A stretch of DNA of 64,000 nucleotides, taken from sequence record NC_048731.1; one strand, 5' to 3'. This DNA comes from Escherichia phage fp01. Position numbers and translations under genes: made by a program. Position 1 is the stretch's first letter. Each line of letters begins with the position of its first letter. A model generated the notes under the pieces. It was given only the letters and a program-made list of their open reading frames with translations, did no database searches and was not told where the DNA came from. This document shows positions 6,326 through 64,000 of this stretch, piece after piece.

Positions 6326-6346
6326 ATTTGAGAGAGGAGTTTAAAT

Positions 6347-14404: not shown

Positions 14405-16972
14405 TTGAAAATCGCAGTAGTTGATAAAGCTCTAAATAACACTCGTTACGATAAACATTTCCAGCTATACGGCGAGGAAGTTGATGTATTCCATATGTGT
14501 AACGAGAAGTTATCTGGTCGTTTGCTTAAAAAGCACATTACTATTGGAACACCAGAAAACCCATTTGATCCGAATGATTATGATTTTGTTATACTAGTAG
14601 GTGCTGAACCTTTCCTGTATTTCGCAGGTAAGAAAGGCATTGGTGACTATACTGGTAAACGTGTAGAGTATAATGGATATGCTAACTGGATTGCGAGTAT
14701 CAGCCCAGCCCAGTTACACTTTAAGCCTGAAATGAAACCAGTTTTCGATGCAACAGTAGAAAATATCCACGATATTATCAATGGTCGTGAGAAGATTGCA
14801 AAAGCTGGTGATTACCGTCCTATTACTGACCCTGATGAGGCGGAAGAATATATCAAGATGGTGTATAATATGGTTATCGGACCTGTCGCATTCGACTCCG
14901 AAACCTCAGCACTATACTGTCGAGATGGTTATCTGCTAGGTGTTTCTATATCTCACCAAGAGTATCAGGGTGTATATATCGATTCTGATTGTCTCACAGA
15001 GGTTGCAGTATATTATCTCCAGAAAATTCTGGATAGTGAAAACCACACTATTGTTTTTCACAACTTGAAGTTTGATATGCACTTTTATAAGTACCATCTG
15101 GGACTTACTTTTGATAAAGCACATAAAGAACGCAGGCTCCATGATACTATGTTGCAGCATTATGTTCTAGATGAGCGTCGTGGTACTCATGGCTTGAAAT
15201 CTCTAGCAATGAAGTATACCGATATGGGTGACTATGACTTTGAACTAGATAAGTTCAAGGAGGATTACTGCAAAGCACATAAAATCAAGAAAGAAGATTT
15301 CACCTATGATTTAATTCCGTTTGATATTATGTGGCCTTACGCTGCGAAAGATACTGATGCCACCCTACGTTTGCACAACTTCTTCTTACCAAAAATTGAG
15401 AAGAATGAAAAACTTTGCAGCCTGTATTATGATGTCCTAATGCCTGGTTGTGTATTTCTCCAGCGTGTTGAGGATCGTGGTGTACCTATTTCTATTGATC
15501 GTTTAAAAGAAGCACAGTACCAGTTAACCCATAATCTGAATAAAGCTCGTGAGAAGCTGTATACTTATCCAGAAGTAGTTCAGCTAGAGAAAGATCAGAA
15601 TGAAGCGTTTAACCCAAACTCTGTTAAACAACTCCGTGTTCTTCTGTTTGACTATGTTGGCTTAACTCCAACAGGTAAATTGACGGATACTGGAGCAGAC
15701 TCTACAGATGCAGAAGCTCTGAACGAATTGTCTACGCAGCATCCAATTGCTAAGACTCTACTAGAGATTCGTAAGCTGACTAAGCTGATCTCTACTTACG
15801 TTGAGAAAATTCTTCTGAGTATTGATGCAGATGGTTGCATTCGTACTGGCTTCCACGAACACATGACTACTTCTGGTCGCCTGAGTTCTTCTGGTAAACT
15901 GAACCTGCAACAGTTACCTCGTGATGAATCTATTATCAAGGGCTGTGTAGTAGCTCCTCCCGGGTATCGTGTAATCGCATGGGACTTAACAACTGCGGAA
16001 GTTTATTATGCTGCTGTTCTATCTGGCGATAGAAATATGCAACAAGTATTTATCAACATGAGAAATGAACCAGATAAATACCCGGACTTCCACTCTAACA
16101 TCGCACACATGGTATTTAAGCTCCAATGCGAACCTCGTGATGTTAAAAAGTTATTCCCAGCTCTGCGTCAAGCAGCTAAAGCAATCACCTTTGGTATTCT
16201 ATATGGTTCTGGCCCAGCTAAAGTAGCTCATTCTGTTAACGAAGCTCTTCTGGAGCAGGCTGCTAAGACAGGCGAACCGTTTGTAGAATGTACGGTTGCA
16301 GATGCTAAAGAGTATATCGAAACTTACTTCGGTCAGTTCCCGCAGCTTAAGCGTTGGATTGATAAGTGCCACGATCAGATCAAGAATCATGGATTTATCT
16401 ATAGTCACTTTGGTCGTAAGCGTCGTCTGCACAATATCCACTCCGAAGACCGTGGTGTTCAGGGTGAGGAAATCCGTTCTGGATTTAACGCAATCATTCA
16501 GTCTGCTTCTTCTGATAGTCTCCTTTTAGGTGCTGTAGATGCAGATAATGAGATCATTTCTCTTGGCCTAGAACAAGAGATGAAGATTGTTATGCTGGTT
16601 CATGACTCCGTAGTTGCTATTGTTCGTGAGGATTTGATCGACCAATACAATGAAATCCTGATTCGTAATATTCAGAAAGACCGTGGTATCAGTATTCCTG
16701 GCTGTCCGATTGGTATTGATTCAGATTCTGAAGCTGGAGGTTCTCGTGACTACTCTTGTGGTAAGATGAAGAAGCAGCATCCATCAATCGCTTGTATTGA
16801 TGATGATGAATATACCCGCTATGTCAAAAGTGTGTTACTTGATGCAGATTTCGAGTATAAGAAACTAGCTGCAATGGATAAAGAGCATCCAGATCACAGC
16901 AAATACAAGGATGATAAGTTTATTGCTGTATGTAAAGATTTGGATAACGTGAGAAGGATTCTCGGTGCTTGA
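14405..16972 (+). CDS. DNA polymerase, family A (Pol I-like) with 3'-5' exonuclease domain
   Basis: Exo motif AFDSETSAL, Pol A motif A-like IAWDLTTAEV, motif B-like RQAAKAITFGILYGSG, motif C VHDS; 855 aa; TTG start behind RBS GAGGAG. Confidence 0.9.
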   Translation: MKIAVVDKALNNTRYDKHFQLYGEEVDVFHMCNEKLSGRLLKKHITIGTPENPFDPNDYDFVILVGAEPFLYFAGKKGIGDYTGKRVEYNGYANWIASISPAQLHFKPEMKPVFDATVENIHDIINGREKIAKAGDYRPITDPDEAEEYIKMVYNMVIGPVAFDSETSALYCRDGYLLGVSISHQEYQGVYIDSDCLTEVAVYYLQKILDSENHTIVFHNLKFDMHFYKYHLGLTFDKAHKERRLHDTMLQHYVLDERRGTHGLKSLAMKYTDMGDYDFELDKFKEDYCKAHKIKKEDFTYDLIPFDIMWPYAAKDTDATLRLHNFFLPKIEKNEKLCSLYYDVLMPGCVFLQRVEDRGVPISIDRLKEAQYQLTHNLNKAREKLYTYPEVVQLEKDQNEAFNPNSVKQLRVLLFDYVGLTPTGKLTDTGADSTDAEALNELSTQHPIAKTLLEIRKLTKLISTYVEKILLSIDADGCIRTGFHEHMTTSGRLSSSGKLNLQQLPRDESIIKGCVVAPPGYRVIAWDLTTAEVYYAAVLSGDRNMQQVFINMRNEPDKYPDFHSNIAHMVFKLQCEPRDVKKLFPALRQAAKAITFGILYGSGPAKVAHSVNEALLEQAAKTGEPFVECTVADAKEYIETYFGQFPQLKRWIDKCHDQIKNHGFIYSHFGRKRRLHNIHSEDRGVQGEEIRSGFNAIIQSASSDSLLLGAVDADNEIISLGLEQEMKIVMLVHDSVVAIVREDLIDQYNEILIRNIQKDRGISIPGCPIGIDSDSEAGGSRDYSCGKMKKQHPSIACIDDDEYTRYVKSVLLDADFEYKKLAAMDKEHPDHSKYKDDKFIAVCKDLDNVRRILGA

Positions 16973-27265: not shown

Positions 27266-29169
27266 TTACCGTAAGCCATTAATTTGATCATTATTTAAAG
27301 CCCTATACCATACTCGGAAATTCTTAATATGATATACAAATTTAGAAGGGGTAGGAGATGGTGATGCACCTAACCTAGACGGAATACCTGTCAAACTCAC
27401 GGGAGTACTAGTAGATTTAGCAGTTTTACCATTAAAGAAATTACTAATCTCATTCCCTGTTATTTTTTGAGCATAGGTCATAGGAGGTAGACTTTCTATA
27501 TCTGGAATAGCTAAGGTTGGCCCTGTACTAGATCTATATGTTCTTATAGTGGCATTATCAGCGCTATCACAGCGGCAGATAATGTCATACTTAGAACCTC
27601 TTACTTGCATAACTTCTACATAACTAGTATAAGGTCGTACTTTACAATTAAATTCAAAAGATACTGTGCGCTCAAAGTAGTCCGCCAGGGTTCTATAGCC
27701 GGCATTATCTGGTATACACCACCATTCATCTGCTGTTCTAGTAGTGGTGGTATCAGTGCTATTACGGATGTAAGAAGTTGGAGCTATGCCTTCCTCAACC
27801 TGTATACCCCAAATGTAGAAACCAGAAACACCATCCCCCTGGTAGACAGTAGTATTGGTATTTTTAGCCATCTGGAGTCTAAATATAGTGCTTCGACTTT
27901 CAGTGGCTGCAAAAGAAACCCAAATTCTATATATACCTCCAGTTAATCTCTCATACCCCCCTCTAATATTACTAGCAGAACCACTTGTAGCAACAGTTTC
28001 ATTTTTAATATCAAAAAACATACCAACAGTTGTACCGGAAGCTACACGTAGATATACTAAACGGTTAGCGGTATCATCTTTAACATAAGCAGAATAGCAA
28101 TAAAAAGTATCAGCAGTCAAAGATATCCATTTATCGTTGCAGTAATGCTCGCCGTCATTGGTATTCTCGGTAAACTTAGTCATCAACATTTCGCCAGTCG
28201 GGCACGCCGAAGCATTAGGAGTTGTAATAACTAGACTACCTCCAGTAATTGCTTCTGAATTAGTATATAAATTAGTGCACTGAGACTCCATTAATAAACC
28301 TTGCTTTTCAAATCTAGGTTCATTAATATCTGCAAAACACATTTTACCACTTTTATCTATATAACTGGCGGTAGTTGAGCGAGTAAAATTTGCAGATTTT
28401 GTTGGCAATTCCAGAGTTACATCATTAATTGTTGCTAAATCGTAGGGGGCCATACCAGATAATAATCTCATATCATCAGTTAAAGGTACCCAAACATCCG
28501 GATAAGGGACAGGTTCATACATAATAATACTAGCAGCAGAAGCAGCGGCGGCAGCTTCAGAAGCTTTAGCATTAATTTCAGAAGCTTTAGCGTTAGTCTC
28601 TGAAGCTTTAGCATTAGTCTCAGAAGNNNNNNNNNNNNNNNNNNNNNNNNNNNNNNNNNNNNNNNNNTTTTACTTGCTAATGCATTAGTTTCGCTAGTAG
28701 CAGCATTAGTTTCCGAGGTTTTAGCTTTGGTTTCACTAGATTTTGCATTAGTTTCTGATGCTTTTGCATTAGTCTCGGATGTTTTAGCCTTAGTTTCACT
28801 AGCTTTCGCATTAGTCTCAGATACTTTAGCTGCTGCGGCTGATGCTGCAGATCTATCCGCTGATGCAGCAGATTGAGTAGCAGATGTAGCGGACTGAGTG
28901 GCAGAGGCTTCAGAAGCTCCAGCAGAAATAGCAGCTTCCTGTTCAGAATCCTTAGCATTAAGTTCTGAAGTCTTAGCAGCTATCTCAGAAGCTTTTGCAG
29001 CTGCAGCAGATTTAGCCGTAGCCTCAATAGAGGATACTAATTCACTTGCAGTAATAGAGCTAATAGAATTACCTAGAGTTACAGTATATCTAGGAAATTT
29101 ACTAGCAGTAGCTTTAGTATCATCAATATTTAATATCTGTTGTACAATAATCTTAGTAGTTACTGCCAT
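27266..29169 (-). CDS. L-shaped tail fibre proximal subunit (pb1 N-terminal/LtfA-like), interrupted by an assembly gap
   Basis: The 418-aa and 229-aa track ORFs are the same reading frame on either side of the N-run; SETNAKA-type repeats continue in frame; N-terminus matches the T5 fibre N-terminus as recalled. Confidence 0.6.
28540..28860 (-). repeat. in-frame tandem 21-nt coding repeats (heptapeptide A-K-A/T-S-E-T-N array)
   Basis: Repeated gcattagtctc(a/t)ga(a/t)gctttagc units on both sides of the gap. Confidence 0.8.
28627..28667. other. assembly gap (41 N)
   Basis: Run of n characters inside a tandem coding repeat. Confidence 0.95.
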
Positions 29170-52837: not shown

Positions 52838-52947
52838 TTTGACTTTTGCCAAATTTCATAAGATTACACATGGAGGTGTGCCCAGTGGGTTGGGGGAGAA
52901 TACTTAGTCTGCTAACCGCCACCCCCGTTACTATTACCTTGCTAACT

Positions 52948-52986
52948 GTTTCATCCTGTAACCATTTTAATTACAGGATGAAACTA
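52948..52986. promoter_or_regulatory. perfect hairpin downstream of dmp-like gene
   Basis: gtttcatcctgtaa-ccatttta-ttacaggatgaaac, 14-bp perfect stem; no clear U-tract. Confidence 0.4.
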
Positions 52987-53001
52987 TGTCAACTTTAATT
53001 A

Positions 53002-53736
53002 TTACGCAACTTTTAATTTCTCAATATATTGTTGCGGGCTGCAACTATATTCTGCGCGTTCTTCCTCGGTCATACTTTCCCAACATAATTTCAAACGATC
53101 GGCTAGGAACTGATAATCATTATCATCCTCGAGGGATTCATCAATAAAGGTTCCGCCTATCAATGCCACGCCGATTGATAGAATATCATTAACGGCTTGC
53201 GCATCTAGCGTTTTAAATCCATATGACGCAGCCGCTGATAATACACCTTTATGATCATCAATCATTGTAAAATCAGCGTTCGGATATAGCTGTTTAAATA
53301 ATTCAAAGTAATAACTTTTGTATACTGCGTCCTTGCTGTGGTATATCTCGCTAACCTTATCAGCCTCAAAATATTTATGCAGTGTATCGCGGGAAAATAC
53401 ACGGATATTACTATCACCACGCCCGCGCAATCCTTGTTTGCGCAAATAATAATAATCCGACTTGCTCATCAGCCGAGCGGTGCAAATAATGTTTAAAGTA
53501 TTTGAGTCATTCATACATTGGCGCATATATTCCACCAAAGGTAATAAGGTGTCTTGCATTATTAAATCATGTTTACACGCTTCATTTTTATACTTATTTA
53601 AATTTAAATTCCCGTCGCTATCAAAGCAAGGCGCTACACGATGGAAAGAATTAATGATAGTGCCGTCCAGATCCCAAATCATGACGCGGGAAATATGCGG
53701 GAAATTACGGGAAATATTCATAATAGCTTTATTCAT
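53002..53736 (-). CDS. dmp: HAD-family phosphatase, 5'-deoxynucleotidase (Dmp)-like
   Basis: HAD motif I IWDLDGTIINS, motif II-like ICTARL, motif IV-like MIDDHKG; 244 aa; location in pre-early region next to A1-like gene. Confidence 0.5.
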   Translation of the reverse strand: MNKAIMNISRNFPHISRVMIWDLDGTIINSFHRVAPCFDSDGNLNLNKYKNEACKHDLIMQDTLLPLVEYMRQCMNDSNTLNIICTARLMSKSDYYYLRKQGLRGRGDSNIRVFSRDTLHKYFEADKVSEIYHSKDAVYKSYYFELFKQLYPNADFTMIDDHKGVLSAAASYGFKTLDAQAVNDILSIGVALIGGTFIDESLEDDNDYQFLADRLKLCWESMTEEERAEYSCSPQQYIEKLKVA

Positions 53737-53815
53737 TTGTTACGTTCTCCATTAAAGGGATGTAGTTTATCCAGCACTGCCCGCTATTTATAAGCGGGCA
53801 ATAATAAATCAACTA

Positions 53816-54223
53816 TCAAAGACCATAAGCCAAAGCATCGGCGATAAAACTAATATCTTCGCCGGATATATGGGAACGAATACCCGCGCAGATATACACC
53901 TTTGCGCTTGATAGCTGATCATCAAAGCAAGCCGGACAAGGCGCGACAACTGCAAACGCAAGGCCAGCTTTCACGGCGTCAATGATAATCGTTTCTTGTT
54001 TCACCGTATCAACATAAACGCCTGCGGCCTTGATGTAACTACTTGCGCGGCCTTGCGTATAGGCGAAAGTCGTGATCTGTAGCGCCTCATTAAATTCGAT
54101 TAAATCATCAACAACGTGACCGGCCTCAACGTGATACCGCTCACCATTAGAATAAACCAGAACGATTGAGGATTGAGCGCGATCGAATGGAATATTTTGC
54201 TTTTTCATATTTATAAACTCCAA
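53816..54223 (-). CDS. hypothetical pre-early protein (A2-position)
   Basis: 135-aa ORF between A1-like and dmp-like genes; contains HVE...PCPAC. Confidence 0.4.
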   Translation of the reverse strand: MEFINMKKQNIPFDRAQSSIVLVYSNGERYHVEAGHVVDDLIEFNEALQITTFAYTQGRASSYIKAAGVYVDTVKQETIIIDAVKAGLAFAVVAPCPACFDDQLSSAKVYICAGIRSHISGEDISFIADALAYGL

Positions 54224-54274
54224 TTAATTTAATAAGGGGCATAAGCTGGAAGTATTTCCAGCTTATAAATTTAA

Positions 54275-55954
54275 TTATGCGAAAAATTTGCCGTTTTTAA
54301 AGTCAATCAAAGTGCGTTGCCCGTTGGCGTATGTAATTAAATGCGTTTGCGTCCAGCTTGACGCGCCAACGTTGTAACCCATATCCAGACTACCAGCTAC
54401 GCCAGCGGTATAAACGCCGCCATAAATGCTAGCGGTGTGAGTGTGTCCGGTGTTTAACTTGCCCAATTTCTTAAACTGCTTAGGATTGCCACGGCTGCCG
54501 TTTATGCCGTTATGACCGTGTACACCACACTCAATGCCTGCAATTTTGAATGATTGATCAGTCGTTAGGAAAATCGCGTTAAACTCGCAACCTGCGACGC
54601 TACGCAGCGCATAATCTAGCACGTTGAAAGTATCGTCATGATTACCGATTGCCGCGTAAATTGCAGCATTAAGGCGGTGATATAGTTCCGCATTGGCTGG
54701 GTCGTCTTTAATGTTAGCATTACGATCATCAAGCCAACGAGATAGCGCCAAATCGTGATTCGATTCAACAATGATCGTTTGACTAAAATCACGCTCCATC
54801 GATTCCAGCACGCGCCCGGTATCGATAAGATCATCAATAACCTTATCCCGTCCGGCTGCATACTGTTTCGCTAGAAATACACCGGAAGCGCGGTTATGAT
54901 GATTGCGCGATGTAAAATCATGCACGTCATGGATAAACTGATATTTAGGCTTGAGAATATCAAGCAAACTATTGTCGCCAGCCCATGACGCTGCGGCGCA
55001 CTCCTCATCTAATTTTTCGGCGTGAATGTCACCATACTGTAAGCCTAAAACATGCCCCGATGTTTCATAGCATCCGGCGGGAGTAGCGCAAACATTCAGA
55101 TCATAAAACACCCCGCTTTCATCCATTGTTTCAAGCTGGCGAACAAAAAATTCACCGTCCTCATCGAACTCGACAATCAGCGCACCAAAGTTATGAAGTG
55201 CTTCCGCTTTCTGTCCTGCTTTCTGCTGAATGTAGTTTTTGAGTGTTGCCGTTCCGGTTGAATACATGCGGCGCACCACTTCACCTTTTAAAGCTGGGAC
55301 GCTTTCGGCGGTGATTTTAGCGTGACCAATTGCCAGACCCTCGATATTTAAAGCCGTTGCAGTTTCTGCAAATCCAGAAAGCGGATAATCTGCGGTTGGC
55401 AAAACATTAATTTCAGCCATGAAAGCAAAACGGCGGTTATTTAAAAACACGTTTTTGCTGCAAATATACTTATCAAAAGCGGAATCATATTTGATTCCGT
55501 CAGCACCTTCCCCATTTTGGAATCCGTTTTTATTATAAATATACTTAGAAACAAGCAAATCAGCGCCGATAAATTTGGCATATTGTTCAAGCGAGGACAA
55601 AAAGTTTTTATGCGGGAAAGTATTATTCTGAATCGATGTAATAATAAAGCGTTTGCCTTGTTTTACTTCCCACTGTTCCACGGTACTAGAAACAATTCCA
55701 GCCGCTTCGGGGCGCTCATCGTTTTTAATGGCTTTTACCGCTTTCGCCGCTTTCGGTTTAGCTGGTTTATTTGCTTCCAGCCAGTCGCAGATAGCGGTTG
55801 AATGTTTTGCAGTATCGTAAACCGCTTTTGATATATCGTCGCAGACCTCCAATTTAGTAGCGCGCAGACGTTTACCATAGAAATTAAAGTCAGCGGCTAG
55901 TTTCAGGATAGCGGTTTGTTTTTCTGCGGAAAAAATCATAGTAATAAACTCCAT
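54275..55954 (-). CDS. A1: A1-like pre-early protein with metallophosphoesterase-type nuclease motifs
   Basis: 559 aa; calcineurin-like motifs GDIHAE and GHTH; GC-rich composition; position matches T5 A1. Confidence 0.55.
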   Translation of the reverse strand: MEFITMIFSAEKQTAILKLAADFNFYGKRLRATKLEVCDDISKAVYDTAKHSTAICDWLEANKPAKPKAAKAVKAIKNDERPEAAGIVSSTVEQWEVKQGKRFIITSIQNNTFPHKNFLSSLEQYAKFIGADLLVSKYIYNKNGFQNGEGADGIKYDSAFDKYICSKNVFLNNRRFAFMAEINVLPTADYPLSGFAETATALNIEGLAIGHAKITAESVPALKGEVVRRMYSTGTATLKNYIQQKAGQKAEALHNFGALIVEFDEDGEFFVRQLETMDESGVFYDLNVCATPAGCYETSGHVLGLQYGDIHAEKLDEECAAASWAGDNSLLDILKPKYQFIHDVHDFTSRNHHNRASGVFLAKQYAAGRDKVIDDLIDTGRVLESMERDFSQTIIVESNHDLALSRWLDDRNANIKDDPANAELYHRLNAAIYAAIGNHDDTFNVLDYALRSVAGCEFNAIFLTTDQSFKIAGIECGVHGHNGINGSRGNPKQFKKLGKLNTGHTHTASIYGGVYTAGVAGSLDMGYNVGASSWTQTHLITYANGQRTLIDFKNGKFFA

Positions 55955-56033
55955 TAAAGGGATAAAAAACGTTTGTTATTGGCAATATTGCCAGATATAA
56001 CGCCTTGAATAATAGGCGTTATAATTTGCAACA

Positions 56034-56231
56034 TTAATTTAAAGGCATAAGGCTAGAACTAACACCACAAACAACGGCGGCAATAAAACAAATCAGACCT
56101 AAACGCTTCGCTAACTTAGATTTGCGTTTAAAATAATACGAATCTAAGTCATTTTGAAAATATGCGAACAATAACGAGGCCGCCATAATAAATAGTCCTA
56201 GAATCAGCGATTCAGTAGGGTAAAAGATCAT
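56034..56231 (-). CDS. small membrane protein
   Basis: Two hydrophobic helices; start set to internal ATG with RBS TGGAG. Confidence 0.35.
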   Translation of the reverse strand: MIFYPTESLILGLFIMAASLLFAYFQNDLDSYYFKRKSKLAKRLGLICFIAAVVCGVSSSLMPLN

Positions 56232-56288
56232 TTTAATAACTCCAGTTAAAGGGAAATTATAGTGGGGAATAATCCCCACTAGTTAAAT

Positions 56289-56696
56289 TTATTCACCTGC
56301 GGCCTGTTTTACTTCATCGGCAACGCCTAACAACTGCGCCACGGCGTCCAGCGTTTCCAGTTTCGCGCTTTCAAGGCTTGCCAGATCATCGGCGTCTTTG
56401 ATAATGCCGGAATCAATAGCGTGTTTTGCAATTACTCGCACATAATGAGCCTTGCGGATTGAACTGCCGCCGCCAACTTTGCGCGGCTTATCGCTTTTTT
56501 GATAGGCTTTCGCGCTGGTCAATTTTGAGCGAACGGATACGGGAGAAGTCGCGCCCACTGCCTTTGCAATCTCTTTCAGGCCGTCGCTATTTGCAAATTC
56601 TAAACCGTTTTCGTTGATTAACTGCTGATACAGGGTAACAGCTTTTTGGGTGTTGTCTTCATTCCAAGTGAATTTTGCGGTTTTTGCGTTAGTCAT
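56289..56696 (-). CDS. hypothetical pre-early protein
   Basis: 135-aa ORF, E. coli-like codons, RBS GGAG. Confidence 0.45.
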   Translation of the reverse strand: MTNAKTAKFTWNEDNTQKAVTLYQQLINENGLEFANSDGLKEIAKAVGATSPVSVRSKLTSAKAYQKSDKPRKVGGGSSIRKAHYVRVIAKHAIDSGIIKDADDLASLESAKLETLDAVAQLLGVADEVKQAAGE

Positions 56697-56794
56697 GGTA
56701 AAAACTCCAATTAATTTAATTTAAGGGATTAGATTAACTAATGTTAATCGTTATAACCCTCCTTATTCTAGGAGGGTATAAAGTTAACACTAAT

Positions 56795-57046
56795 TTATAA
56801 TACAGCTTCCCATTTTTCGTTGCGTTGAACAACCTTTACAACATCGCCTGATTTAACGCGAACGTTATAAACGGTTTTGCCGTTGTTACTGCGTTCTGTT
56901 TCAGCGTATACCGCGTCGATTGTATCGAACGGCATAAGCGCCGCGCCTTTAATACGTTCGGCCTTTCCGGTTAATTCATCCGTTTTAGTAACGAAAGGAA
57001 TAAAAACGGATTGACCAATTTTAGGCGTGGTAATAACGTTTTGCAT
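56795..57046 (-). CDS. hypothetical pre-early protein
   Basis: 83-aa ORF with RBS GGAG. Confidence 0.4.
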   Translation of the reverse strand: MQNVITTPKIGQSVFIPFVTKTDELTGKAERIKGAALMPFDTIDAVYAETERSNNGKTVYNVRVKSGDVVKVVQRNEKWEAVL

Positions 57047-57246
57047 AATATAGACTCCAGTTTATTCAGTGGATTGTTCCGCATTACCTGCTAGAAAATA
57101 ACAGGTAATAAGAAAAAATCCGCTCGCCATTATAAAATCAAATTAAAGAACTCCACGCGGGCCGCTATATCCCAGTTAGGGGGCGAGACACATTATGGTA
57201 AGTGCCGACCGTCAAATTGTATCAAGTTATCGCTCTTTTCGAACTG

Positions 57247-57271
57247 GGTATATCTTAAAAGCCCATCGGCT
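57247..57271. repeat. left arm of a 25-bp inverted repeat flanking a two-gene cassette
   Basis: GGGTATATCTTAAAAGCCCATCGGC; reverse complement with one mismatch at 57670-57694. Confidence 0.8.
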
Positions 57272-57277
57272 AGGTTG

Positions 57278-57478
57278 TCAAACTATTTTTTGCAGTTTTT
57301 TATGATTTTCCTTCAGGTCAATCATAATATTACGCCAGATCATTTCTAAACCTTGCTGGCGCCCTTTCTTGTACTGCGTGAAGCGGTATTTTACCGATCT
57401 TTGCGCTACTGTCAATAATTTTTTAGTTTCGCTATCCAGTGCCTTGCTAGGTTTACCAGTGATCAATAGAGTTTGCAT
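57278..57478 (-). CDS. hypothetical small basic protein
   Basis: 66 aa, Lys/Arg-rich; start overlaps upstream stop (TAATG). Confidence 0.35.
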   Translation of the reverse strand: MQTLLITGKPSKALDSETKKLLTVAQRSVKYRFTQYKKGRQQGLEMIWRNIMIDLKENHKKLQKIV

Positions 57479-57636
57479 TATTTGAGATCCTCCAAAGCGT
57501 ATAAACCTTTGCCATCATTGCAGATTATTACTGCTTCTGAATAGGTGGCATGATATTCGTTTGCCGCTTTTACCCATTGCTCGATCTTTTCGATCGTGTC
57601 GTGGGTAGCTGGATGATCGTTATATATTGTTTGCAT
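57478..57636 (-). CDS. hypothetical small acidic protein
   Basis: 52-aa ORF found by hand (below the track length cut-off); RBS AAGGA 9 nt upstream; translationally coupled to the next gene. Confidence 0.3.
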   Translation of the reverse strand: MQTIYNDHPATHDTIEKIEQWVKAANEYHATYSEAVIICNDGKGLYALEDLK

Positions 57637-57669
57637 ATCGTCGATTCCTTATAATGAATAAGTTTACCG

Positions 57670-57694
57670 CCGATAGGCTTTTAAGATATACCCA
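57670..57694. repeat. right arm of the 25-bp inverted repeat
   Basis: GCCGATAGGCTTTTAAGATATACCC; embedded in a local palindrome agtttaccgccg...cggcggtaaact. Confidence 0.8.
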
Positions 57695-58148
57695 ATTTTT
57701 AAAGAGCGCGGCGGTAAACTCCCCGCCGTGTAGTTCGTCATTGCCGCCCTACGAGATAAATAATAACAAACAACGAAAAAGGCGCAACCTTATATTTGTA
57801 AAGAAATGTAAAGACAAAATCCACCGGACACCGTGCGGCGATCTGGGCGCGACGGCCTAAAATTAAAAGAAACGGGCGCGCGAATACCACAAAACACAGC
57901 AGATAAGCAAGTAATTTTTTCATTTATATTTGCTTTGCCCTACTTGACAAAATCTAAAAAGCTCGTGGCGACGATAAACGACGTGGCCCCTTATGATTGG
58001 ATGGCTAAAAACTTTACTGCGTTCTGGGGCGTTTCAGGCCGCTTATTTTCGACTTAACAAATCATTAACAAACGCAAAATTGAAAAATAGTTGGAAAAGG
58101 TCTTGACTTTTAAAAATCAAGACCAAATGACTTAATTTATTAAATTAA

Positions 58149-58667
58149 TTAATTGACAATTCCAAATTCAGCTTTTTTAGTTTCAAGCCATAATAATAAC
58201 TCTTGTAAATCATAACCTGACTTACTAACACGCTTGTTAGTAATAGGATTCTTAATTTGAGCAGTCAAATAGTCACGCCCGTAACTATCACGGGGGCGAA
58301 CTTTATTAACGTAAATGTTTTTAGGGATACCATTAGCACGCTTACAGTTTTCATACTCACTAGGAGTACGATTATAATTATTCTGCGAACTATCAACCGC
58401 GCGAAGATTCCAGATGTTATTATTACGAGTGTTACGATCGATATGATCAATCATTAGCTCGCTATCTATACCGCCATTCATTATACAAAAGATAATTCTA
58501 TGTACTTTTAACTGTCCCATGCCTAATAGTTCAACTTGCCAATAATTACCATTTAAACCACCTGCGACGGCGTGATCTTCCCGCCAACGTAAAAATGATA
58601 ACGCTGTTTCATCATAATAAAAGTAACTATTAAAAAGATCATAATCTATATCTTTATATTTACCCAT
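58149..58667 (-). CDS. HNH homing endonuclease
   Basis: HNH signature MIDHIDRNTRNNNIWNLRAV (H-x-D...N...N); AT-rich codons unlike the GC-richer neighbours. Confidence 0.65.
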   Translation of the reverse strand: MGKYKDIDYDLFNSYFYYDETALSFLRWREDHAVAGGLNGNYWQVELLGMGQLKVHRIIFCIMNGGIDSELMIDHIDRNTRNNNIWNLRAVDSSQNNYNRTPSEYENCKRANGIPKNIYVNKVRPRDSYGRDYLTAQIKNPITNKRVSKSGYDLQELLLWLETKKAEFGIVN

Positions 58668-58931
58668 TGTTATAGTTTCCTTATGTTATTAATTTAATCT
58701 CTATTATATTATATCAAAACAATTAGCAGACTAGCTAATGAGTTTTTCAGGTTTAATTAGCAGACTCATAATCACTCTAAAAACCTATTAGCCAACTAAC
58801 TATATTTTATTATATAATAACTGTATAAATTAGTTAGTGAGAACCACTATCATTTAAGTTACCCACAGCCTTATACATTTTGTAAAATAATTTGACACAA
58901 TAGGCGGCGATATGAGGGCTTTTACACAGAC

Positions 58932-58940
58932 TTATCCACA
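58932..58940 (+). promoter_or_regulatory. consensus DnaA box
   Basis: TTATCCACA exact match to the DnaA box consensus. Confidence 0.5.
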
Positions 58941-58950
58941 GGTTATTCCA

Positions 58951-58966
58951 CTGTATAAATATACAG
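58951..58966. promoter_or_regulatory. LexA (SOS) box-like palindrome
   Basis: CTGTATAAATATACAG fits CTGT-(AT-rich 8)-ACAG. Confidence 0.4.
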
Positions 58967-59232
58967 GGTAAAAAGGTAGTGTTAACAACTGCAATCAATT
59001 TTAAGCGGCCTAAAACGCTTTCTAACGAGCTAAACGCTGCGGGGTAGTATTAAAGTAAAGCCTTCACCCGTCGGCCTGGTGGCTTCGCCGTGTCTTGCTC
59101 TTTACTACACCGCTGCGCGGTTAGCATAAAACTAGGTGTTAGGCAAGGAAAATAAAAAAGTAAAATAATCTTTGCCTATGCTAGAAAATTACCCTTATCA
59201 TTCACTCACCGATTAACGAGGGAGGCCAACAA

Positions 59233-60219
59233 ATGCGGCTATATAAACCAGATAACGCAACCGTCTTAAAAGGTGCGCTGCGTAACCTGCTGGACGGTAG
59301 CAGAACAACCAGCATTAAACATTTTGTTTTCAATATTGAAACTATTCATCAAAACTTTTTTGATGATTATGATGCTTACAATATGAATAGTTTTCTACCG
59401 TTATATAAGCAAGGGGCAACGCTTGTTTTATATAATCAGGATTATCAATTACTTACTAGTAGGGGGCCGGATACTGATTTCATAGTCGTAAAAGGCAACA
59501 CAGTAAAAGCCTATGATACTGGGGCGGGCTTAGAAGTTTTTTCAATAGAAAACTATGAAGCCAATGATAATGATCTTTATGACGTAGAAAATTTTCTTGA
59601 TTCATTTTGGCGTTATTTATCAGTTGGCTGGAATCGGTCGGATTCTGATGGGTATCGTTTTGCGGCTATAATGGCCTTTGATGATAACGGTAATTTTTTG
59701 CTACCGTCGGAGTTATATAATCGGGTATATGAAGGCGATATTGTTGACGCCGGATTTTCTTTCGAAAGGGAAGAAAGTATTGACAGTATAGAAAAACATG
59801 CTGTAAATTCTAACACTAAAAGCGTTCACACTCAAACTACTGAAAACAAAGGAAAAAATGCCATGACCAAGATCGCTAACATCGTTGCCGCCAATAAGTC
59901 TGCCGTTGTAAACGCTGCAAAACTGGAAGCGGGTAAAATTGCACTGACTCAAATTACGAAAGTAGCGGCTAAAAAAGCACCGTTCATGATCAAAGGCTAT
60001 ATTGATACGCCGATTGGTCGTGTAGTGATCGCTAACCTGCTGAGTGTAGCGGTTGACCAGTACGCCCCGAGTAACCAGAAAGCGAAAGCGGTAGCAGGGG
60101 CGGCTATGGAAGCGGCGATGTTGGAAATGGTGCAAAGTTTTAACATCGCTGAGATGATTGATGAAATGGTAAAAGGTATCGATATTTCTACTTTCACCAC
60201 TAACACCGAAAGCGAGTAA
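59233..60219 (+). CDS. hypothetical pre-early protein (328 aa), two-part composition
   Basis: RBS GAGGGAGG; C-terminal third Ala-rich with E. coli-like codons. Confidence 0.45.
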   Translation: MRLYKPDNATVLKGALRNLLDGSRTTSIKHFVFNIETIHQNFFDDYDAYNMNSFLPLYKQGATLVLYNQDYQLLTSRGPDTDFIVVKGNTVKAYDTGAGLEVFSIENYEANDNDLYDVENFLDSFWRYLSVGWNRSDSDGYRFAAIMAFDDNGNFLLPSELYNRVYEGDIVDAGFSFEREESIDSIEKHAVNSNTKSVHTQTTENKGKNAMTKIANIVAANKSAVVNAAKLEAGKIALTQITKVAAKKAPFMIKGYIDTPIGRVVIANLLSVAVDQYAPSNQKAKAVAGAAMEAAMLEMVQSFNIAEMIDEMVKGIDISTFTTNTESE

Positions 60220-60283
60220 TAATAACTAGCGGGGTAACAATCCCCGCTTTACTATTCCCTTGTTAATTAATAGGAGGCTAATT

Positions 60284-60601
60284 ATGCAGCTTAACAAAAA
60301 AATGCTAGAACAATTGCGGGGTAGAATCCAGCGCGATGACTACCCTCACATTAATTATTCTTCGGAAGTAGTAGACACTGCCGATTCATGGAAAAAAGCA
60401 GGTTACCCCTATGTATGGCAACATGCAGAAAGCGCAAACGGATTCCATGCCTTTCGTGATTTAGGTCATGGAAAACTTTGCGTTTTTAAAGGTGAGTTAT
60501 TAATAGGAGTATCAGAATCGGAAGTAATCACGGATGAGGTTGTATTCTTAGACAATGACCAATATGAAACAGGCAATCAGTTTTATTTTCCCGCTAATTA
60601 A
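60284..60601 (+). CDS. hypothetical protein
   Basis: Start at ATG 60284 behind TTAATTAATAGGAGGCTAATT; the track start at 60260 lacks an RBS. Confidence 0.4.
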   Translation: MQLNKKMLEQLRGRIQRDDYPHINYSSEVVDTADSWKKAGYPYVWQHAESANGFHAFRDLGHGKLCVFKGELLIGVSESEVITDEVVFLDNDQYETGNQFYFPAN

Positions 60602-60615
60602 TAGGAGGCTAATTA

Positions 60616-61110
60616 ATGGCTGAAGAAAAATATGGCTTCTCACTGGGAGAAGTGAGCACGGCAAAACATGATATGATCATTTTAGTCGATTGTCATACTG
60701 GCTATTGCGGGGAAGGGAATACCGAGGAATATTTTGTTCCTGCTGGTACGGATCTAGACGCTTTCGCTCAGGAAATGGCTATTGATAATGCTTCTCGTTT
60801 TGGTAGCGATGGCTATGAAGACGAGGAAACTGGCGAATGGTATGAAAATGAAAACGTATATGCGAGCCTTTATCATTATCAATTAAGTAAATCCGGCACA
60901 TATGTAAACGGCGGCGATCCTATTAATTCCGTCATGAAATTAATTATTAAACACGGTGGCGTCGAGATAATTGATAACAAAGCGGTAATATATGCAAACC
61001 GATTAAAACAGCTTGTTTATATCCCTGATAGTACCCGATGGGATGAATACGCCGTTTTGCATGACGAATTGAAACGATGTTTCAATGTTGAAGCCTTACA
61101 AGTAGTCTAA
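60616..61110 (+). CDS. hypothetical acidic protein
   Basis: Preceded by the same TTAATTAATAGGAGGCTAATTA element; 164 aa. Confidence 0.45.
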   Translation: MAEEKYGFSLGEVSTAKHDMIILVDCHTGYCGEGNTEEYFVPAGTDLDAFAQEMAIDNASRFGSDGYEDEETGEWYENENVYASLYHYQLSKSGTYVNGGDPINSVMKLIIKHGGVEIIDNKAVIYANRLKQLVYIPDSTRWDEYAVLHDELKRCFNVEALQVV

Positions 61111-61123
61111 TGTAAAGTTTTGT

Positions 61124-61152
61124 AAAGGTCGCCTTTTATGGTGGCCTTTTTT
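61124..61152 (+). terminator. putative terminator followed by an extended -10 element
   Basis: aaaggtcgcc-ttttat-ggtggccttt (G-U wobble stem) then TTTTTTGCTATAATG. Confidence 0.4.
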
Positions 61153-61216
61153 GCTATAATGCCTTTACACCGTTTGAGGACGGTTGAAAATTTTCCCAAA
61201 AATTTGGAGGCTTAAA

Positions 61217-61447
61217 ATGGTTGCTTATTCTTCTTCTGACGCTCTTTTCACTGGGAAAGGCTGGGTATCTAATCGCTGGATTATTCAAGAAATGGTGCAA
61301 GAATACGGCATTGCTAAAACTTACACTACCATTCAGGCGCTTTATGATAATGATCAAATCGATCAGCAAACGGCGGGCTTTTTGCTGGATACCCTGAAAG
61401 CGGAACACTGTACCAAAAAACAAGCGGCAAAAATTGTTTTAATGTAA
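61217..61447 (+). CDS. hypothetical protein
   Basis: ATG at 61217 with RBS TGGAGG; 76 aa. Confidence 0.35.
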   Translation: MVAYSSSDALFTGKGWVSNRWIIQEMVQEYGIAKTYTTIQALYDNDQIDQQTAGFLLDTLKAEHCTKKQAAKIVLM

Positions 61448-61496
61448 TTAATAACGGGGCGTTACTTTCGCCCCACTAACTAGGGGAGTAGTACAA

Positions 61497-61679
61497 ATGG
61501 TTATTTTTCGAGCTGTTCTAGCAGGTATCTTGGGCGCTATTTTGACCCTTTTCGCCACCGCGTATGGTATTCAGGATTCCTATTGCGGTTTGGTAAATAC
61601 AAAACCAATGGTTACTATTGGCGCTGGCATTGCTGTATTTTCTTATCTGCTAGGCTGCATGACTAGTAAAGGAGAATAA
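61497..61679 (+). CDS. small membrane protein
   Basis: 60 aa with two hydrophobic helices; RBS GGGGAG. Confidence 0.35.
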   Translation: MVIFRAVLAGILGAILTLFATAYGIQDSYCGLVNTKPMVTIGAGIAVFSYLLGCMTSKGE

Positions 61680-61681
61680 AA

Positions 61682-61894
61682 ATGATCCGCAACGTTTCTC
61701 TTGCACGTTCGAAAGGCTTTAAGCTGGTGGATGCTAACACGTTCGAGCGTCTTGATTGTAAAATCGAATATGTAGCACGTAACAAAAATGCCTTTCGTGT
61801 TACCGAGAAAAAATTTGACAAGCGCGGCAACGTGATCGCTGAAACGGTTAAACACTTTGCCACCTTTTACGCTGCGTTTCGTGGGGTGTTATAA
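61682..61894 (+). CDS. hypothetical small basic protein
   Basis: 70 aa; starts 3 nt after previous stop. Confidence 0.35.
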   Translation: MIRNVSLARSKGFKLVDANTFERLDCKIEYVARNKNAFRVTEKKFDKRGNVIAETVKHFATFYAAFRGVL

Positions 61895-61895
61895 A

Positions 61896-62240
61896 ATGGT
61901 TATTTATGAAGGCAATCGTTTTGTTGCTAATTGCCGCCCGGCATTGTTAGCAAACTATTTAAATCAGCTTTCGCCAGCTTATAAGGGCGTTATTAATATT
62001 TATGAGGGCAAGGCACATTATAAAATTAATGCGGTCGTTGCCCGTGAACTAGCATTTCAATTTTTGACCTTTGCATCTTGTGACGTTCAAGTTATGGGTG
62101 AAGCATTAATTGCGGAAAATGAAGAGGATTTTATTAATATTTTCCGCAAGGTATGCACCGAGCGCCTGATAATGAAAGGCGCGTATATTCAATCCACTGC
62201 GGATAGTATTGAAACAGCGTTTCGAAAGGTGGCACAATGA
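61896..62240 (+). CDS. hypothetical protein
   Basis: ATG at 61896 directly after upstream stop; 114 aa. Confidence 0.35.
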   Translation: MVIYEGNRFVANCRPALLANYLNQLSPAYKGVINIYEGKAHYKINAVVARELAFQFLTFASCDVQVMGEALIAENEEDFINIFRKVCTERLIMKGAYIQSTADSIETAFRKVAQ

Positions 62241-62395
62241 AAAAGTTTTTAATAGCTGGCATGTTTCCTTTGTTGCCTTATGTAATTTGCTGGGCTTTAT
62301 ATGCTCATGGTGCTAGTGTTCCCGGTGTGGCTGCATTTGGTGTATCAGCGGGCTTTCTAGCCGGACTACTAGCAAGCGTATATTTACGCAAGTAA
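62237..62395 (+). CDS. small membrane peptide (52 aa)
   Basis: Hydrophobic throughout; ATGA overlap with upstream gene; found by hand. Confidence 0.3.
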   Translation: MKKFLIAGMFPLLPYVICWALYAHGASVPGVAAFGVSAGFLAGLLASVYLRK

Positions 62396-62414
62396 TTAAC
62401 AACGGAGCGTTATT

Positions 62415-62609
62415 ATGAGCAATAAAATTATTGTAACCAAAACCAGCACAACGGTTGATGTTTTTTACGTGCCCGATACGCCGGAAAACCGACAAGCGGT
62501 CGAGCGTGGGGAATATGATAAAGTGATTTATGATCACGATGGTTATTATCAGTATTTGGTGGATTCATATGGGGAGGAGGAAAAGATCACGCACCGACTA
62601 CCGGACTAA
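62415..62609 (+). CDS. hypothetical small acidic protein
   Basis: 64 aa; RBS ACGGAG. Confidence 0.35.
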   Translation: MSNKIIVTKTSTTVDVFYVPDTPENRQAVERGEYDKVIYDHDGYYQYLVDSYGEEEKITHRLPD

Positions 62610-62650
62610 TAATCACGGGGCGCAACTATCAGGAAGTGCCCCCAATTCTC

Positions 62651-62671
62651 AAATGAGAATGATTCTCATTT
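62651..62671. repeat. perfect 21-bp palindrome
   Basis: AAATGAGAATGATTCTCATTT; related copies at about 63160 and 63220. Confidence 0.7.
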
Positions 62672-62893
62672 GACCGCGCCCGCGATGGTTAGCCTGCTAA
62701 TGGTTAGGGTGTTACGTGTCGCCTTGTGTGATCGTTAGCGAGCTAACTAATTTTCAAGCCTCCTCCAATTTTGCCCTTGTTTTAGTATCCCCACCAAAAT
62801 TAAACGCGTTAGAATGCGTTTGAGGGCGTTTTAGCGGTATATTAGAATTATTCACTGCGTAGGAATACTGTATATTTATCCAGTAGGATAAGC

Positions 62894-62978
62894 TGTGGAT
62901 AAGTCTGTTGATAACGCTTCAAAACGGCTAGGATTTTGTCAAGTCAAATCGTGCTGTTGATAAGTCTGGGGATAACTT
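62894..62978. promoter_or_regulatory. cluster of DnaA-box-like sites
   Basis: TGTGGATAA (62894-62902, exact reverse-complement consensus), TGTTGATAA at 62906 and 62955, GGGGATAAC at 62967. Confidence 0.55.
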
Positions 62979-63007
62979 AAATAATAGTGTTTCTCACTTC
63001 CGTTCTT

Positions 63008-63250
63008 AAATGCGAATCATTATCATTTGCATTCCACTTCCTGAATAAGAATCATTCCACTATCTAAACGATAATCATTCCACTTCCTGAATAATAATCA
63101 TTCCACTATCTAAATAAGAATCATTCCACTATCTAAACGATAATCATTCCACTTTTTAAATGAGATTGATTCTCATTCCACTTTCTAAATGCGAATTATT
63201 ATCATTCGCATTCCGCTTTTTAAATGAGAATGATTCTTATTATCATTCGT
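63008..63250. repeat. about 9 tandem copies of a roughly 23-bp direct repeat (iteron-like)
   Basis: Repeating (A)ATCATTCCACT(A/T)TCTAAA(C/T)(G/A) units. Confidence 0.8.
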
Positions 63251-63255
63251 ATTTA

Positions 63256-63282
63256 GCGCAGAGCAATTGCTCTGCGCTTTTG
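63256..63282 (+). terminator. perfect 22-bp palindrome with T-tract
   Basis: GCGCAGAGCAATTGCTCTGCGC then TTTTG. Confidence 0.55.
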
Positions 63283-63520
63283 TGCAAAACCGACATTGCT
63301 CCACGGGTGTTACGTGCGGGCGTATGTGCAAATCCGACAGGATTTTTGGTAGTGTGCAAATCCGACCCGAAAAATTTTTATAGTGTGCGAATCCGACAAT
63401 GAATTTTTCCAAAAACTCCAGCAATCCGATGCTGCGCATCAATCCTGTGGAATTAACTAGAATATGTGCAAATCCGACATGAGTTTATTTGTGCGAATCC
63501 GACAAGATTTTTGTGACTTC
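63282..63520. repeat. six direct 13-bp repeats GTGCRAAWCCGAC
   Basis: Copies near 63282, 63328, 63353, 63384, 63466, 63490, each followed by an A/T-rich tract. Confidence 0.8.
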
Positions 63521-63529
63521 GATTGGAGG

Positions 63530-63700
63530 GTGTGTGATTGTGTGGGTTTGGGGAGAAGTTGAGAGAGCGAGGGAAAATTAGGGGAGAAGCTAGAGAGGCG
63601 CATGTTTGGTGCGGGGGCACCCGATTTGCGGGGATTTTGGGGAAGAGTTGAGAAGATTTGGGTTAATTTGAGATTAGTGGAGATAAAGTAAAATTTTATT
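63530..63700. repeat. purine-rich G-tract region with three GGGGARRAGYTRGAGA copies
   Basis: ggggagaagttgagaga, ggggagaagctagagag, ggggaagagttgagaag; strong G/A strand skew. Confidence 0.6.
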
Positions 63701-63834
63701 AGCTAAATGGGGCAAAATAGCTTGACAAGTGAAAATTCTTGTGGCTCTAAAAACTCAGGCAATCATGGGCCTTCGGCCCGAAATAATGCTGCCATTTTCA
63801 AGAGATTATGTGTCCATGAAAACTTAGGCAATTG

Positions 63835-63985
63835 TGCAAATCCGACCATAAATTTCTAGAAACACAATGTGCAAATCCGACAGTAAAATCCAGAAATGTG
63901 TTTTCAAAAAATGTTGTCTAGAAATAACCGCCCTCCCCATAACCGCCCTGTATTAAACCGCCTAGTATATGTTCCTAGAAACTTA
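63835..63985. repeat. two further GTGCAAATCCGAC copies followed by four AACCGCC motifs
   Basis: GTGCAAATCCGAC at about 63837 and 63870; AACCGCC at about 63927, 63943, 63957, 63981. Confidence 0.7.
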
Positions 63986-64000
63986 GGAGAACCGCCCACT

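Follow-up and report, generated by a model that had tools for sequence, protein, structure and literature searches.

The last ~11 kb (52.9–64 kb) of a 64,000-nt stretch of the Escherichia phage fp01 genome (NC_048731.1), the whole of which we call the window, carry dmp, A1, A2 and an HNH homing-endonuclease gene on the minus strand and, on the plus strand, a pre-early block that opens with a homologue of the T5 37-kD protein. These two oppositely oriented pre-early units are separated by a 565-bp spacer (58668–59232) bounded by the minus-strand HNH open reading frame (ORF) and the plus-strand ORF, just as a first-pass annotation of the sequence had described, and a non-coding, repeat-rich injection-stop region begins at ~62.6 kb. 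By megablast, the spacer and its flanks are 88–92% identical to T5-like phages (Tequintavirus and relatives), including positions 5770–6621 of T5 (AY587007), and on the strength of this identity we assign the last ~11 kb of the window to the terminal-repeat, or first-step-transfer (FST), region of a T5-like phage. The same annotation had flagged within the spacer an exact DnaA box beside a palindrome of the SOS-box pattern, and had proposed that these host-factor sites couple the diverging takeover genes to host replication or SOS status. Both sites were found: the exact DnaA box TTATCCACA occupies 58932–58940 (+) and the palindrome CTGTATAAATATACAG occupies 58951–58966, where it matches CTGT-N8-ACAG exactly and has an AT-rich centre. 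The two are adjacent as claimed, with a gap of 10 nt (58941–58950) rather than 11.

The DnaA box and the palindrome are not private to the divergent promoter region; together they close the left copy of a 131-bp unit (58836–58966) on its right-hand side. The reverse complement of 62868–62998, which lies 3.9 kb away inside the non-coding injection-stop region, is identical to this unit at 95/131 positions (73%), and a repeat search of the window recovered the same relationship as long-range inverted repeats (arms 58892–58966 and 58836–58874 pairing with 62868–62942 and 62960–62998; Table 1). In the T5 annotation (AY587007), inverted repeat C (IRC) spans 6022–6060 and inverted repeat D (IRD) spans 6112–6152, and their partners D′ and C′ (9332–9462) overlap “palindrome D” (9330–9349) within the injection stop signal. 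Davison (2020; bioRxiv 10.1101/866236) names these units Repeat Region 2 (IRC-spacer-IRD) and Repeat Region 3 (IRD′-spacer-IRC′), describes their spacer as constant, reasons that both take part in the stop function, places the HNH gene between Repeat Regions 1 and 2, and recognizes “Type 4” phages that have neither IRC nor IRD. Like T5 Repeat Region 2 (AY587007 6022–6152), the window element is 131 bp long, has the HNH insert on one side and the 37-kD gene on the other, is matched by an inverted copy in the non-coding stop region, and carries pairs of DnaA and DnaA* boxes 3 bp apart at the junctions of inverted repeat and spacer; furthermore, it aligns column by column with T5 and 28 other loci. 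By homology we assign it to the Repeat Region 2 family, from whose T5 member it departs in an A to C change at position 15 of the right palindrome, the IRC boxes being degenerate much as they are in T5. A cis-acting role of the repeat pair in the FST stop is proposed.

Table 1 Features of the fp01 first-step-transfer region, in window coordinates
Feature	Position	Strand	Remarks
dmp	53002–53736	−	FST-region gene
A1	54275–55954	−	FST-region gene
A2	56289–56696	−	FST-region gene
HNH homing-endonuclease gene, homologue of T5 hegG	58149–58667	−	Pfam HNH_3, E = 4.8e-12; T5 annotation; left spacer boundary
Extended −10-like TGATATAAT, predicted leftward HNH promoter	58716 to 58708	−	Within homologue of T5 annotated “T5P3”
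Short direct repeats ATTAGCAGACT (two copies), variant ATTAGCCAACT at 58787–58797	58722–58797	+	
IRC arm (Repeat Region 2)	58836–58874	+	87% complementary to 62960–62998; T5 inverted repeat C
51-bp spacer of IRC/IRD unit, invariant TTGACA at 58892–58897	58875–58925	+	Alignment of 30 unique loci
IRD arm: DnaA box TTATCCACA, then TTATTCCAC 2 bp on, then palindrome	58926–58966	+	T5 inverted repeat D
Left SOS-box-like 20-mer CACTGTATAAATATACAGGG (core 58951–58966)	58949–58968	.	20.2 bits, HI-like 6.5; second-best in window
Weak leftward promoter-like match TTAACA-16-TATATT, −10 inside palindrome	58985 to 58958	−	10/12 matches
Arm B′ (TAAGCGGCCTAAAACGC) of second long-range inverted repeat	59002–59018	+	94%; T5 “inverted repeat B/B′”
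GC-rich segment, hairpin on paper	59029–59125	+	Fold of enclosing 58990–59235, z = −1.98
Predicted rightward pre-early promoter: A-rich block, −35 TTGCCT (59172–59177), −10 TATCAT (59196–59201)	59148–59201	+	Conserved in alignment
First gene of rightward pre-early block	59233–60219	+	Homologue of T5 37-kD protein / gene 011; DUF7566
Right SOS-box-like 20-mer TACTGTATATTTATCCAGTA, homologue of T5 “palindrome D”	62866–62885	.	25.6 bits, HI-like 1.9; best in window
IRD′-spacer-IRC′, inverted twin of 58836–58966	62868–62998	−	T5 IR D′/C′, injection stop signal

The window was scored with a LexA matrix derived from the 18 E. coli SOS boxes of a published table (PMC3009722, Table 4), which ranked the sites just as an earlier matrix had done. 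The flagged palindrome (20.2 bits) and its twin (25.6 bits) emerged as the top two sites of the 64 kb, in keeping with the LexA likeness that had been claimed for the former. The published boxes themselves score 13.3–25.0 bits; the right site thus exceeds all of them, and the left site is mid-range among real sites, level with the lexA and dinI boxes. The right palindrome reads CTGT-N8-CCAG and retains CTG-N10-CAG. The earlier matrix predicts ~0.015 chance matches of 19 bits or more in 64 kb, and 4 Mb of first-order Markov sequence scanned with it contained none. The looser pattern CTGT-N8-ACAG occurs 3 times in the 64 kb against 0.84 expected, a count reached by 4 of 100 shuffles. As a sequence prediction, the palindrome is strongly supported as an excellent candidate LexA operator. 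The third-best LexA-like 20-mer of the window, AGCTGTATACTTATCCAGAA at 15555–15574 (16.6 bits), overlaps the DnaA-like TTATCCAGA and lies inside an 855-aa ORF; it was taken as a chance match.

The exact DnaA box, for its part, has a counterpart at 62894–62902 (−) within the inverted twin of the repeat, and both are R-type 9-mers (TTATNCACA). Exact boxes in the 64 kb number 2 against 0.78 expected, which 19 of 100 shuffles reach, and matches with at most one mismatch number 19 against 18.98 expected, the count that chance would give; 6 of these 19 fall in the two 131-bp arms, which make up 0.4% of the window. Taken individually, neither the DnaA box nor the CTGT-N8-ACAG pattern stands far above chance; the case rests on their context. 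In the left copy, the exact box forms the second member of the IRD pair, after TTTTACACA (58920–58928), which fits TT(A/T)TNCACA and starts within the 51-bp spacer, and the IRC pair is degenerate (TTACCCACA at 58859–58867, with one mismatch, and TTATACATT at 58871–58879). The right copy holds four DnaA-type boxes on the minus strand, the exact one and three with one mismatch each (62906–62914, 62955–62963 and 62967–62975). Davison (bioRxiv 10.1101/866236) counts eight DnaA or DnaA-like boxes across the two repeat units, arranged as pairs with 3 bp between partners, and dates the earliest DnaA-box observation to 1987. The flagged DnaA box is thus genuine and conserved, and already a published feature of a known element (Davison 2020).

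The LexA side of the module appears to be new. Published descriptions of T5 treat the palindrome only as “PalD” or as part of IRD, with neither LexA nor SOS mentioned, and Davison (bioRxiv 10.1101/866236), for whom PalD is a possible cleavage-site palindrome, makes no mention of LexA, SOS, repressor or operator. In the searchable full-text literature, beyond which some of the older T5 literature lies, we found no link of LexA or SOS to T5, T5-like phages, Tequintavirus or pre-early DNA. The LexA reading of the palindrome is therefore apparently new; the DnaA part was known.

To what extent the two motifs persist among relatives was assessed in 39 related FST loci gathered via the A2 protein, of which 30 unique loci were aligned. 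In 38 of the 39, LexA matches of at least 15 bits occur only at the same two positions, apart from one extra match in L038. The stop-region copy is nearly invariant: almost all loci have there the perfect palindrome or the mirror of it. At the left copy the match is weaker across loci, with CC or CA at positions 1–2, and its half-site is broken (CAG to CAA) in 4 of the 30. More distant Demerecviridae were gathered via the A1 protein and comprised Klebsiella PWKp9S (Sugarlandvirus; 74% A1 identity), Proteus RP7 (Novosibvirus; 43%) and the Vibrio phages D308, JSF10 and Gary (32–35%). In all five, DnaA boxes abut a CTGTAT-N4-ATACAG palindrome on the stop side, and within ±160 bp of the sites the only 9-mers common to all six genomes are DnaA-box and SOS-box words. 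The clustering of DnaA boxes, which exceeds chance in the arms, is thus kept in the 30 unique loci and in five genera. These results bear directly on whether the sites are a chance likeness in AT-rich non-coding DNA. A lone DnaA box or CTGT-N8-ACAG match in 64 kb is indeed not significant; the joint occurrence of the two, their duplication in the twin, matrix scores of which fewer than 0.02 per window would be expected, and the persistence of the sites in five genera effectively refute that explanation.

Conservation also bears on which protein would read the palindrome. Across genera, CTG and CAG never change, in contrast to the centre (AAAT, ATTT, ATCC or ATAA) and the outer two bases, and the information content of the phage sites, position by position, correlates with that of LexA boxes (r = 0.81). 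Across the same span of phages, identity of the A2 protein falls to 35–43%. LexA and DnaA have the same specificity in Enterobacterales and Vibrionales. Since the bases critical for LexA are kept across genera while A2 diverges to this extent, host factors are favoured over a co-evolving phage protein as the predicted binders of the sites. The alternative, that a phage protein targets the palindrome and that its LexA likeness is incidental or mimicry, would cast as the binder either A2, a predicted DNA-binding protein, or A1 and A2 together in a complex by which the DNA is cut or released, as envisaged in the “restriction-site” model of Davison (bioRxiv 10.1101/866236); PalD is among the candidate cleavage palindromes of that model. 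An AlphaFold model of A2 (17 homologues, pLDDT 84) is all-helical, and its weak top fold matches are helix-turn-helix regulators, which would suit such a role; none of these matches reached E < 1, A2 has no sequence relative in Pfam or PDB, and the predicted structure lacks a LexA-like winged-helix fold. A2 as a LexA-like DNA binder thus found no support in the Pfam and PDB searches or in the all-helical model, and we read the A2 evidence as neither for nor against binding of the palindrome by A2. Were the binder encoded by the phage, it could diverge in concert with its site; the LexA match spans the full 20-mer and at its best outscores all 18 published E. coli SOS boxes; and the neighbouring motifs are host DnaA boxes, which points to a logic of host factors. 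We consider a phage-protein target unlikely.

The comparison further revealed a rearrangement between the two copies. In the Sugarlandvirus-like phages (L039–L041 and L162, the last being Klebsiella phage PWKp9S), homologues of the 37-kD gene and of the ORF at 60616–61110 share a strand with A2 and A1. In Proteus RP7 and in every Tequintavirus-level locus they are on the other strand, from which it follows that the Sugarlandvirus-like phages have the intervening block inverted. When compared with window positions 59233–62240, the end points of the inversion coincide with the inverted-repeat modules, and the SOS boxes face inward despite the inversion, leaving the geometry of the module unchanged. 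A separate observation concerns the central AA/TT, the sole asymmetric part of the palindrome, which flips between close relatives and between copies (TATAAATATA versus TATATTTATA) in a manner consistent with gene conversion or inversion across the palindrome. Both the inverted block with its end points at the modules and the flipping centres are what would be expected if the repeats mattered as DNA only, through recombination, inversion, gene conversion or cruciform formation, their likeness to protein sites being without function, and the region is rich in other repeats and palindromes. Recombination, however, needs homology rather than motifs, and across genera only the DnaA and SOS words survive; within this phage, the arms are 73% identical, yet the motifs are kept. 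An explanation by DNA repeats alone is accordingly one to which we give little credence.

With respect to the regulatory proposal of the first-pass annotation, which is supported in part, the quality of the sites, the conservation of the DnaA boxes and the divergent setting all hold, and control of the two divergent promoters does not follow from them. The predicted rightward promoter (TTGCCT-18-TATCAT) lies ~205 bp downstream of the palindrome, at a place homologous to that of the annotated T5P4, and the predicted HNH promoter lies ~235 bp to its left; in T5, a promoter upstream of gene 011, the homologue of the gene at 59233, is counted as experimentally characterised in a 2026 preprint. The module does not keep a constant spacing from the genes that flank it. 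The better-conserved right copy has non-coding repeats on one side, the 3′ end of an operon on the other and no adjacent gene. As for promoters overlapping the SOS sites themselves, there are weak consensus matches only at the left site and none that convinces at the right, the leftward TTAACA being kept in 21 of the 30 unique loci, one base off in 6 and replaced in T5, L007 and L012. A T5 mutant whose deletion, as a preprint describes it (bioRxiv 10.64898/2026.04.02.716235), runs from hegG to gene 017 remains viable and forms small plaques, and this deletion would remove the spacer together with the left copy. Because the promoters are ~205 and ~235 bp away and the twin adjoins no gene, because the spacing varies and one genus has the block inverted, and because phages lacking IRC and IRD exist and the hegG–017 deletion is viable, a simple SOS operator of the two divergent promoters appears poorly supported, and the flagged site is probably not their essential operator.

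A more general version of the same idea holds that each module is a weak sigma-70 promoter, repressed by LexA and modulated by DnaA, such that pre-early transcription (sense, antisense or of non-coding RNA) follows SOS or replication status. Two geometries would serve, an inward TTATCC-16-TATAAA (58932 to 58959, with the −35 in the DnaA box and the −10 in the palindrome) and the outward TTAACA-16-TATATT (58985 to 58958). LexA boxes are operators almost by definition, the left palindrome is overlapped by a promoter-like match, and the DnaA box stands 22–24 nt from the TATA within the palindrome in T5-like phages, Proteus RP7 and unrelated phages alike. The −35 elements are nevertheless poor (TTATCC matches at 3/6) and TTAACA is not conserved in T5; SOS boxes are TATA-rich by nature, which makes −10-like matches automatic; the best-conserved copy is gene-free on both sides; the conserved predicted promoters lie elsewhere; and the spacing to genes is not conserved, the gene block itself being open to inversion. 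Further LexA-like boxes were seen nearer A2 in four of the distant phages and not in Gary, whose locus is cut at the start of the record. In the Proteus and Vibrio relatives, such an extra box lies on the A2 side with no DnaA box adjacent to it (L163:9910, L165:10550, L164:10948), and in RP7 and JSF10 it stands 2–12 nt upstream of a TTGACA; it is possible that this box is an operator for the A2–A1 operon in those genera, which would favour the promoter interpretation. No counterpart of it was found near P_H22 or P_D/E20 in Tequintavirus. A perfect TTGACA also occurs in the module spacer, at 58892–58897 and at 62937–62942 (minus), pointing toward the SOS box and invariant, in either copy, among the aligned T5-like and Sugarlandvirus-like loci; as a −35 element it would lack a partner, there being no −10 hexamer at 16–18 nt. 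No intrinsic terminators were found in the spacer.

The same motifs outside the T5-like phages lend the promoter interpretation further weight. The T5-type 20-mer TACTGTATAAATATACAGTA, which is exactly T5 “palindrome D”, occurs in more than 120 stretches of IMG/VR (L043–L161), and 102 of 121 such sites were classed as non-T5 by the rough criterion that no exact DnaA box lies within ~60 nt. In non-T5 viral contigs it stands 16–21 nt upstream of DinI-like, Peptidase_S24 (UmuD-type) and Tum-like ORFs, the Tum-like products carrying a DinI domain at the C-terminus. These are functions classically under SOS control, and the 20-mer would there act as an SOS-type operator before DinI-, UmuD- and Tum-like genes. 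The composite pattern TTATCCACA-N(4–16)-CTGTAT-N4-ATACAG was found in 59 stretches of IMG/VR, against ~1 estimated by chance. Most of these are T5-like and some are distant A1-encoding contigs (L167, L172, L175/L178 and L203). Others have no A1 or A2 in the fetched stretch (L176, L177, L179, L184, L194; L180, L187, L189, L198, L201; L181, L185, L199; L192), and several of them are clearly unrelated phages. In the contigs of this last kind, a tandem pair of DnaA boxes precedes the SOS box, as in TTATCCACAGGTTATCCACA-A-CTGTATAGACATACAG, and in L176 and L177 a second pair follows it. In the five loci examined (L176, L180, L181, L192 and L198), the site falls between divergently oriented genes; in L176, L181 and L192, terminase or portal genes adjoin it. 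These occurrences suggest that a pair of DnaA boxes abutting an SOS box is a reusable phage module and, since they place DnaA-plus-SOS sites at divergent junctions of unrelated phages, they keep an operator-type function alive; for the fp01 sites, we regard it as somewhat unlikely.

The interpretation that we prefer, at a probability of roughly 45%, is that the module is a landing pad for the host factors DnaA and LexA, of which the flagged sites are the accessory left copy in an inverted pair, tied to the FST boundary and the injection-stop function. It draws on the anatomy of the module and the pairing of its copies, on the quality of the LexA and DnaA matches and on their conservation across genera. 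The module comprises two pairs of DnaA boxes (IRC and IRD) with the 51-bp spacer between them and a predicted, near-consensus LexA operator capping the IRD side. Its two inverted copies, with SOS boxes facing inward, bracket the variable right-hand pre-early block, the right copy sitting at the inner edge of the FST DNA in the gene-free injection-stop region. Host LexA and DnaA, already present as the first 8% of the genome enters, might occupy both copies within seconds, and the module could serve as a nucleoprotein boundary or anchor linked to FST and the injection stop rather than as an operator of the divergent promoters. The left copy, which is weaker and sometimes degenerate or missing, would be an accessory partner and is probably dispensable. 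The most speculative step is that LexA occupancy ties the state of the complex to host takeover: such occupancy could report takeover because RecA-stimulated self-cleavage removes LexA and A1 degrades host DNA during the pause. In its fullest form, the proposal would make LexA, together with DnaA, a physical part of the T5 injection-stop complex at the SOS box of the inner FST edge and at its inverted twin. Removal of LexA, by RecA-stimulated cleavage after A1-driven breakdown of host DNA or by displacement through A1/A2, would then help to license second-step transfer or to switch pre-early expression, and the tandem DnaA pair with its SOS box would be reusable elsewhere. So extended, we hold the proposal to be improbable.

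Several points weigh against the landing-pad interpretation. T5 plates on recA laboratory strains, and LexA cleavage therefore cannot be required for second-step transfer. To our knowledge, nearly all known LexA boxes are transcriptional operators, so that a non-transcriptional role would be less conventional. A protein bound to DNA that has already entered would present no obvious stop to further entry. The dispensability of the left copy leans on the hegG–017 deletion, whose removal of the spacer we infer from its description. Lastly, a paper on phage BF23 describes the role of these sites as lacking experiments, and the LexA and DnaA sites are themselves predictions from sequence.

Comparison with known systems locates the module between familiar categories. 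Like canonical gammaproteobacterial SOS boxes, TACTG(TA)5CAGTA (umuD, sbmC, recN, recA and sulA; the phage 186 tum type; prophage dinI and umuD-like genes), the window sites match over the full length, with scores that are equal or higher; unlike them, the window sites do not overlap a convincing promoter from which a downstream gene would be repressed, and the better copy belongs to a strictly virulent phage and sits where that phage has no genes. Clustered DnaA boxes, as in oriC, datA and DARS, and DnaA boxes that block transcription are established in the field. The window array shares with the former TTATNCACA-type 9-mers in same-orientation pairs at 2–3 bp spacing (about one helical turn start to start), and differs from them in being abutted by an SOS box, which is no feature of theirs. 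No origin function would be expected of the FST module, since T5 origins lie near mid-genome according to literature cited by Davison (bioRxiv 10.1101/866236) and the replication genes are not yet in the cell. Colicin operons, CTX-phi, GIL01 and coliphage 186 likewise are mobile elements with high-affinity LexA sites, in which the host repressor reports the state of the host; these, however, are temperate or plasmid systems that use LexA for an induction decision, whereas Demerecviridae are virulent. We found no description, in the searchable literature, of a LexA box that these virulent phages conserve in their pre-early DNA.

How the entry of T5 DNA halts after 8% and then restarts is a question that dates from the 1960s. 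The sole current molecular proposal for the stop appears to be that DnaA boxes bind membrane DnaA, Davison having proposed that membrane-bound DnaA holds the DNA at that point (bioRxiv 10.1101/866236). The predicted LexA operator capping these boxes, a palindrome retained in phages of hosts from Escherichia to Vibrio, would bring in another host factor that is easy to manipulate. If it is borne out, this would be the first strictly virulent phage family, within the searchable literature, to keep SOS boxes in its first-entering DNA, and the DnaA boxes that abut an SOS box in unrelated phages would hint at a general device for sensing the state of the host.

The remainder of the spacer holds further repeats and one apparent structure. 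The first-pass annotation had also reported a duplicated motif, and ATTAGCAGACT is indeed present in exactly two copies, at 58722–58732 and 58756–58766, 34 bp apart. The first is part of the palindrome ATTAGC-AGACT-AGCTAAT and occurs only in HNH-carrying phages, the HNH gene being an insertion that only some T5-like phages carry; copies 2 and 3 of the direct repeat are present in nearly all of the 30 aligned loci. The partner of arm B′ lies beyond the HNH insert, at 58029–58045. Arm B′ itself includes CTAAAACGC. The motif CTAAAACGC / GCGTTTTAG stands 30–41 bp beyond the SOS box in both copies, inverted (59010–59018 and 62826–62834), and its sub-words CTAAAAC and AAAACGC lie near LexA-like boxes in 5 of 6 genera-level genomes (including L163–L166), forming hairpins in places, for example CCCTAAAACGCT...AGCGTTTTAGGG. 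A conserved RNA structure in the GC-rich segment (59029–59125) is not supported: 17 homologues gave 0 compensatory pairs for the hairpin (covariation term −0.1) and a consensus fold that differs from the single-sequence one, and the spacer has no Rfam match at E ≤ 1. ARAGORN found no tRNA in it. Two hypervariable patches within this otherwise conserved segment, 59035–59045 (GCTGCGGGG / GCTATAGGG / GCGACAAGG) and 59104–59112 (ACTACA / ATTGCA / ACTATG), change among close relatives without correlation. The spacer ends with a ribosome-binding site (GGGAGG, 59220–59225) ahead of the ATG at 59233.

At the other end of the block, the injection-stop region contains, within 63030–63190 and 63325–63887, a 23-bp unit repeated in tandem to five copies (CATTCCACT...) and a scattered repeat, TGTGCAAATCCGAC, in seven copies; these are probably the direct repeats of the T5 annotation there. 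Upstream of dmp lie other phage genes, and the sequence runs past ~10.1 kb from the left edge of the repeat (window 52880–64000); for this reason, what the source record shows is probably not the physical left end, but either the right terminal repeat or an assembly that has been permuted or collapsed. Window positions 28627–28667 read as 41 consecutive N, a stretch either masked or left unsequenced.

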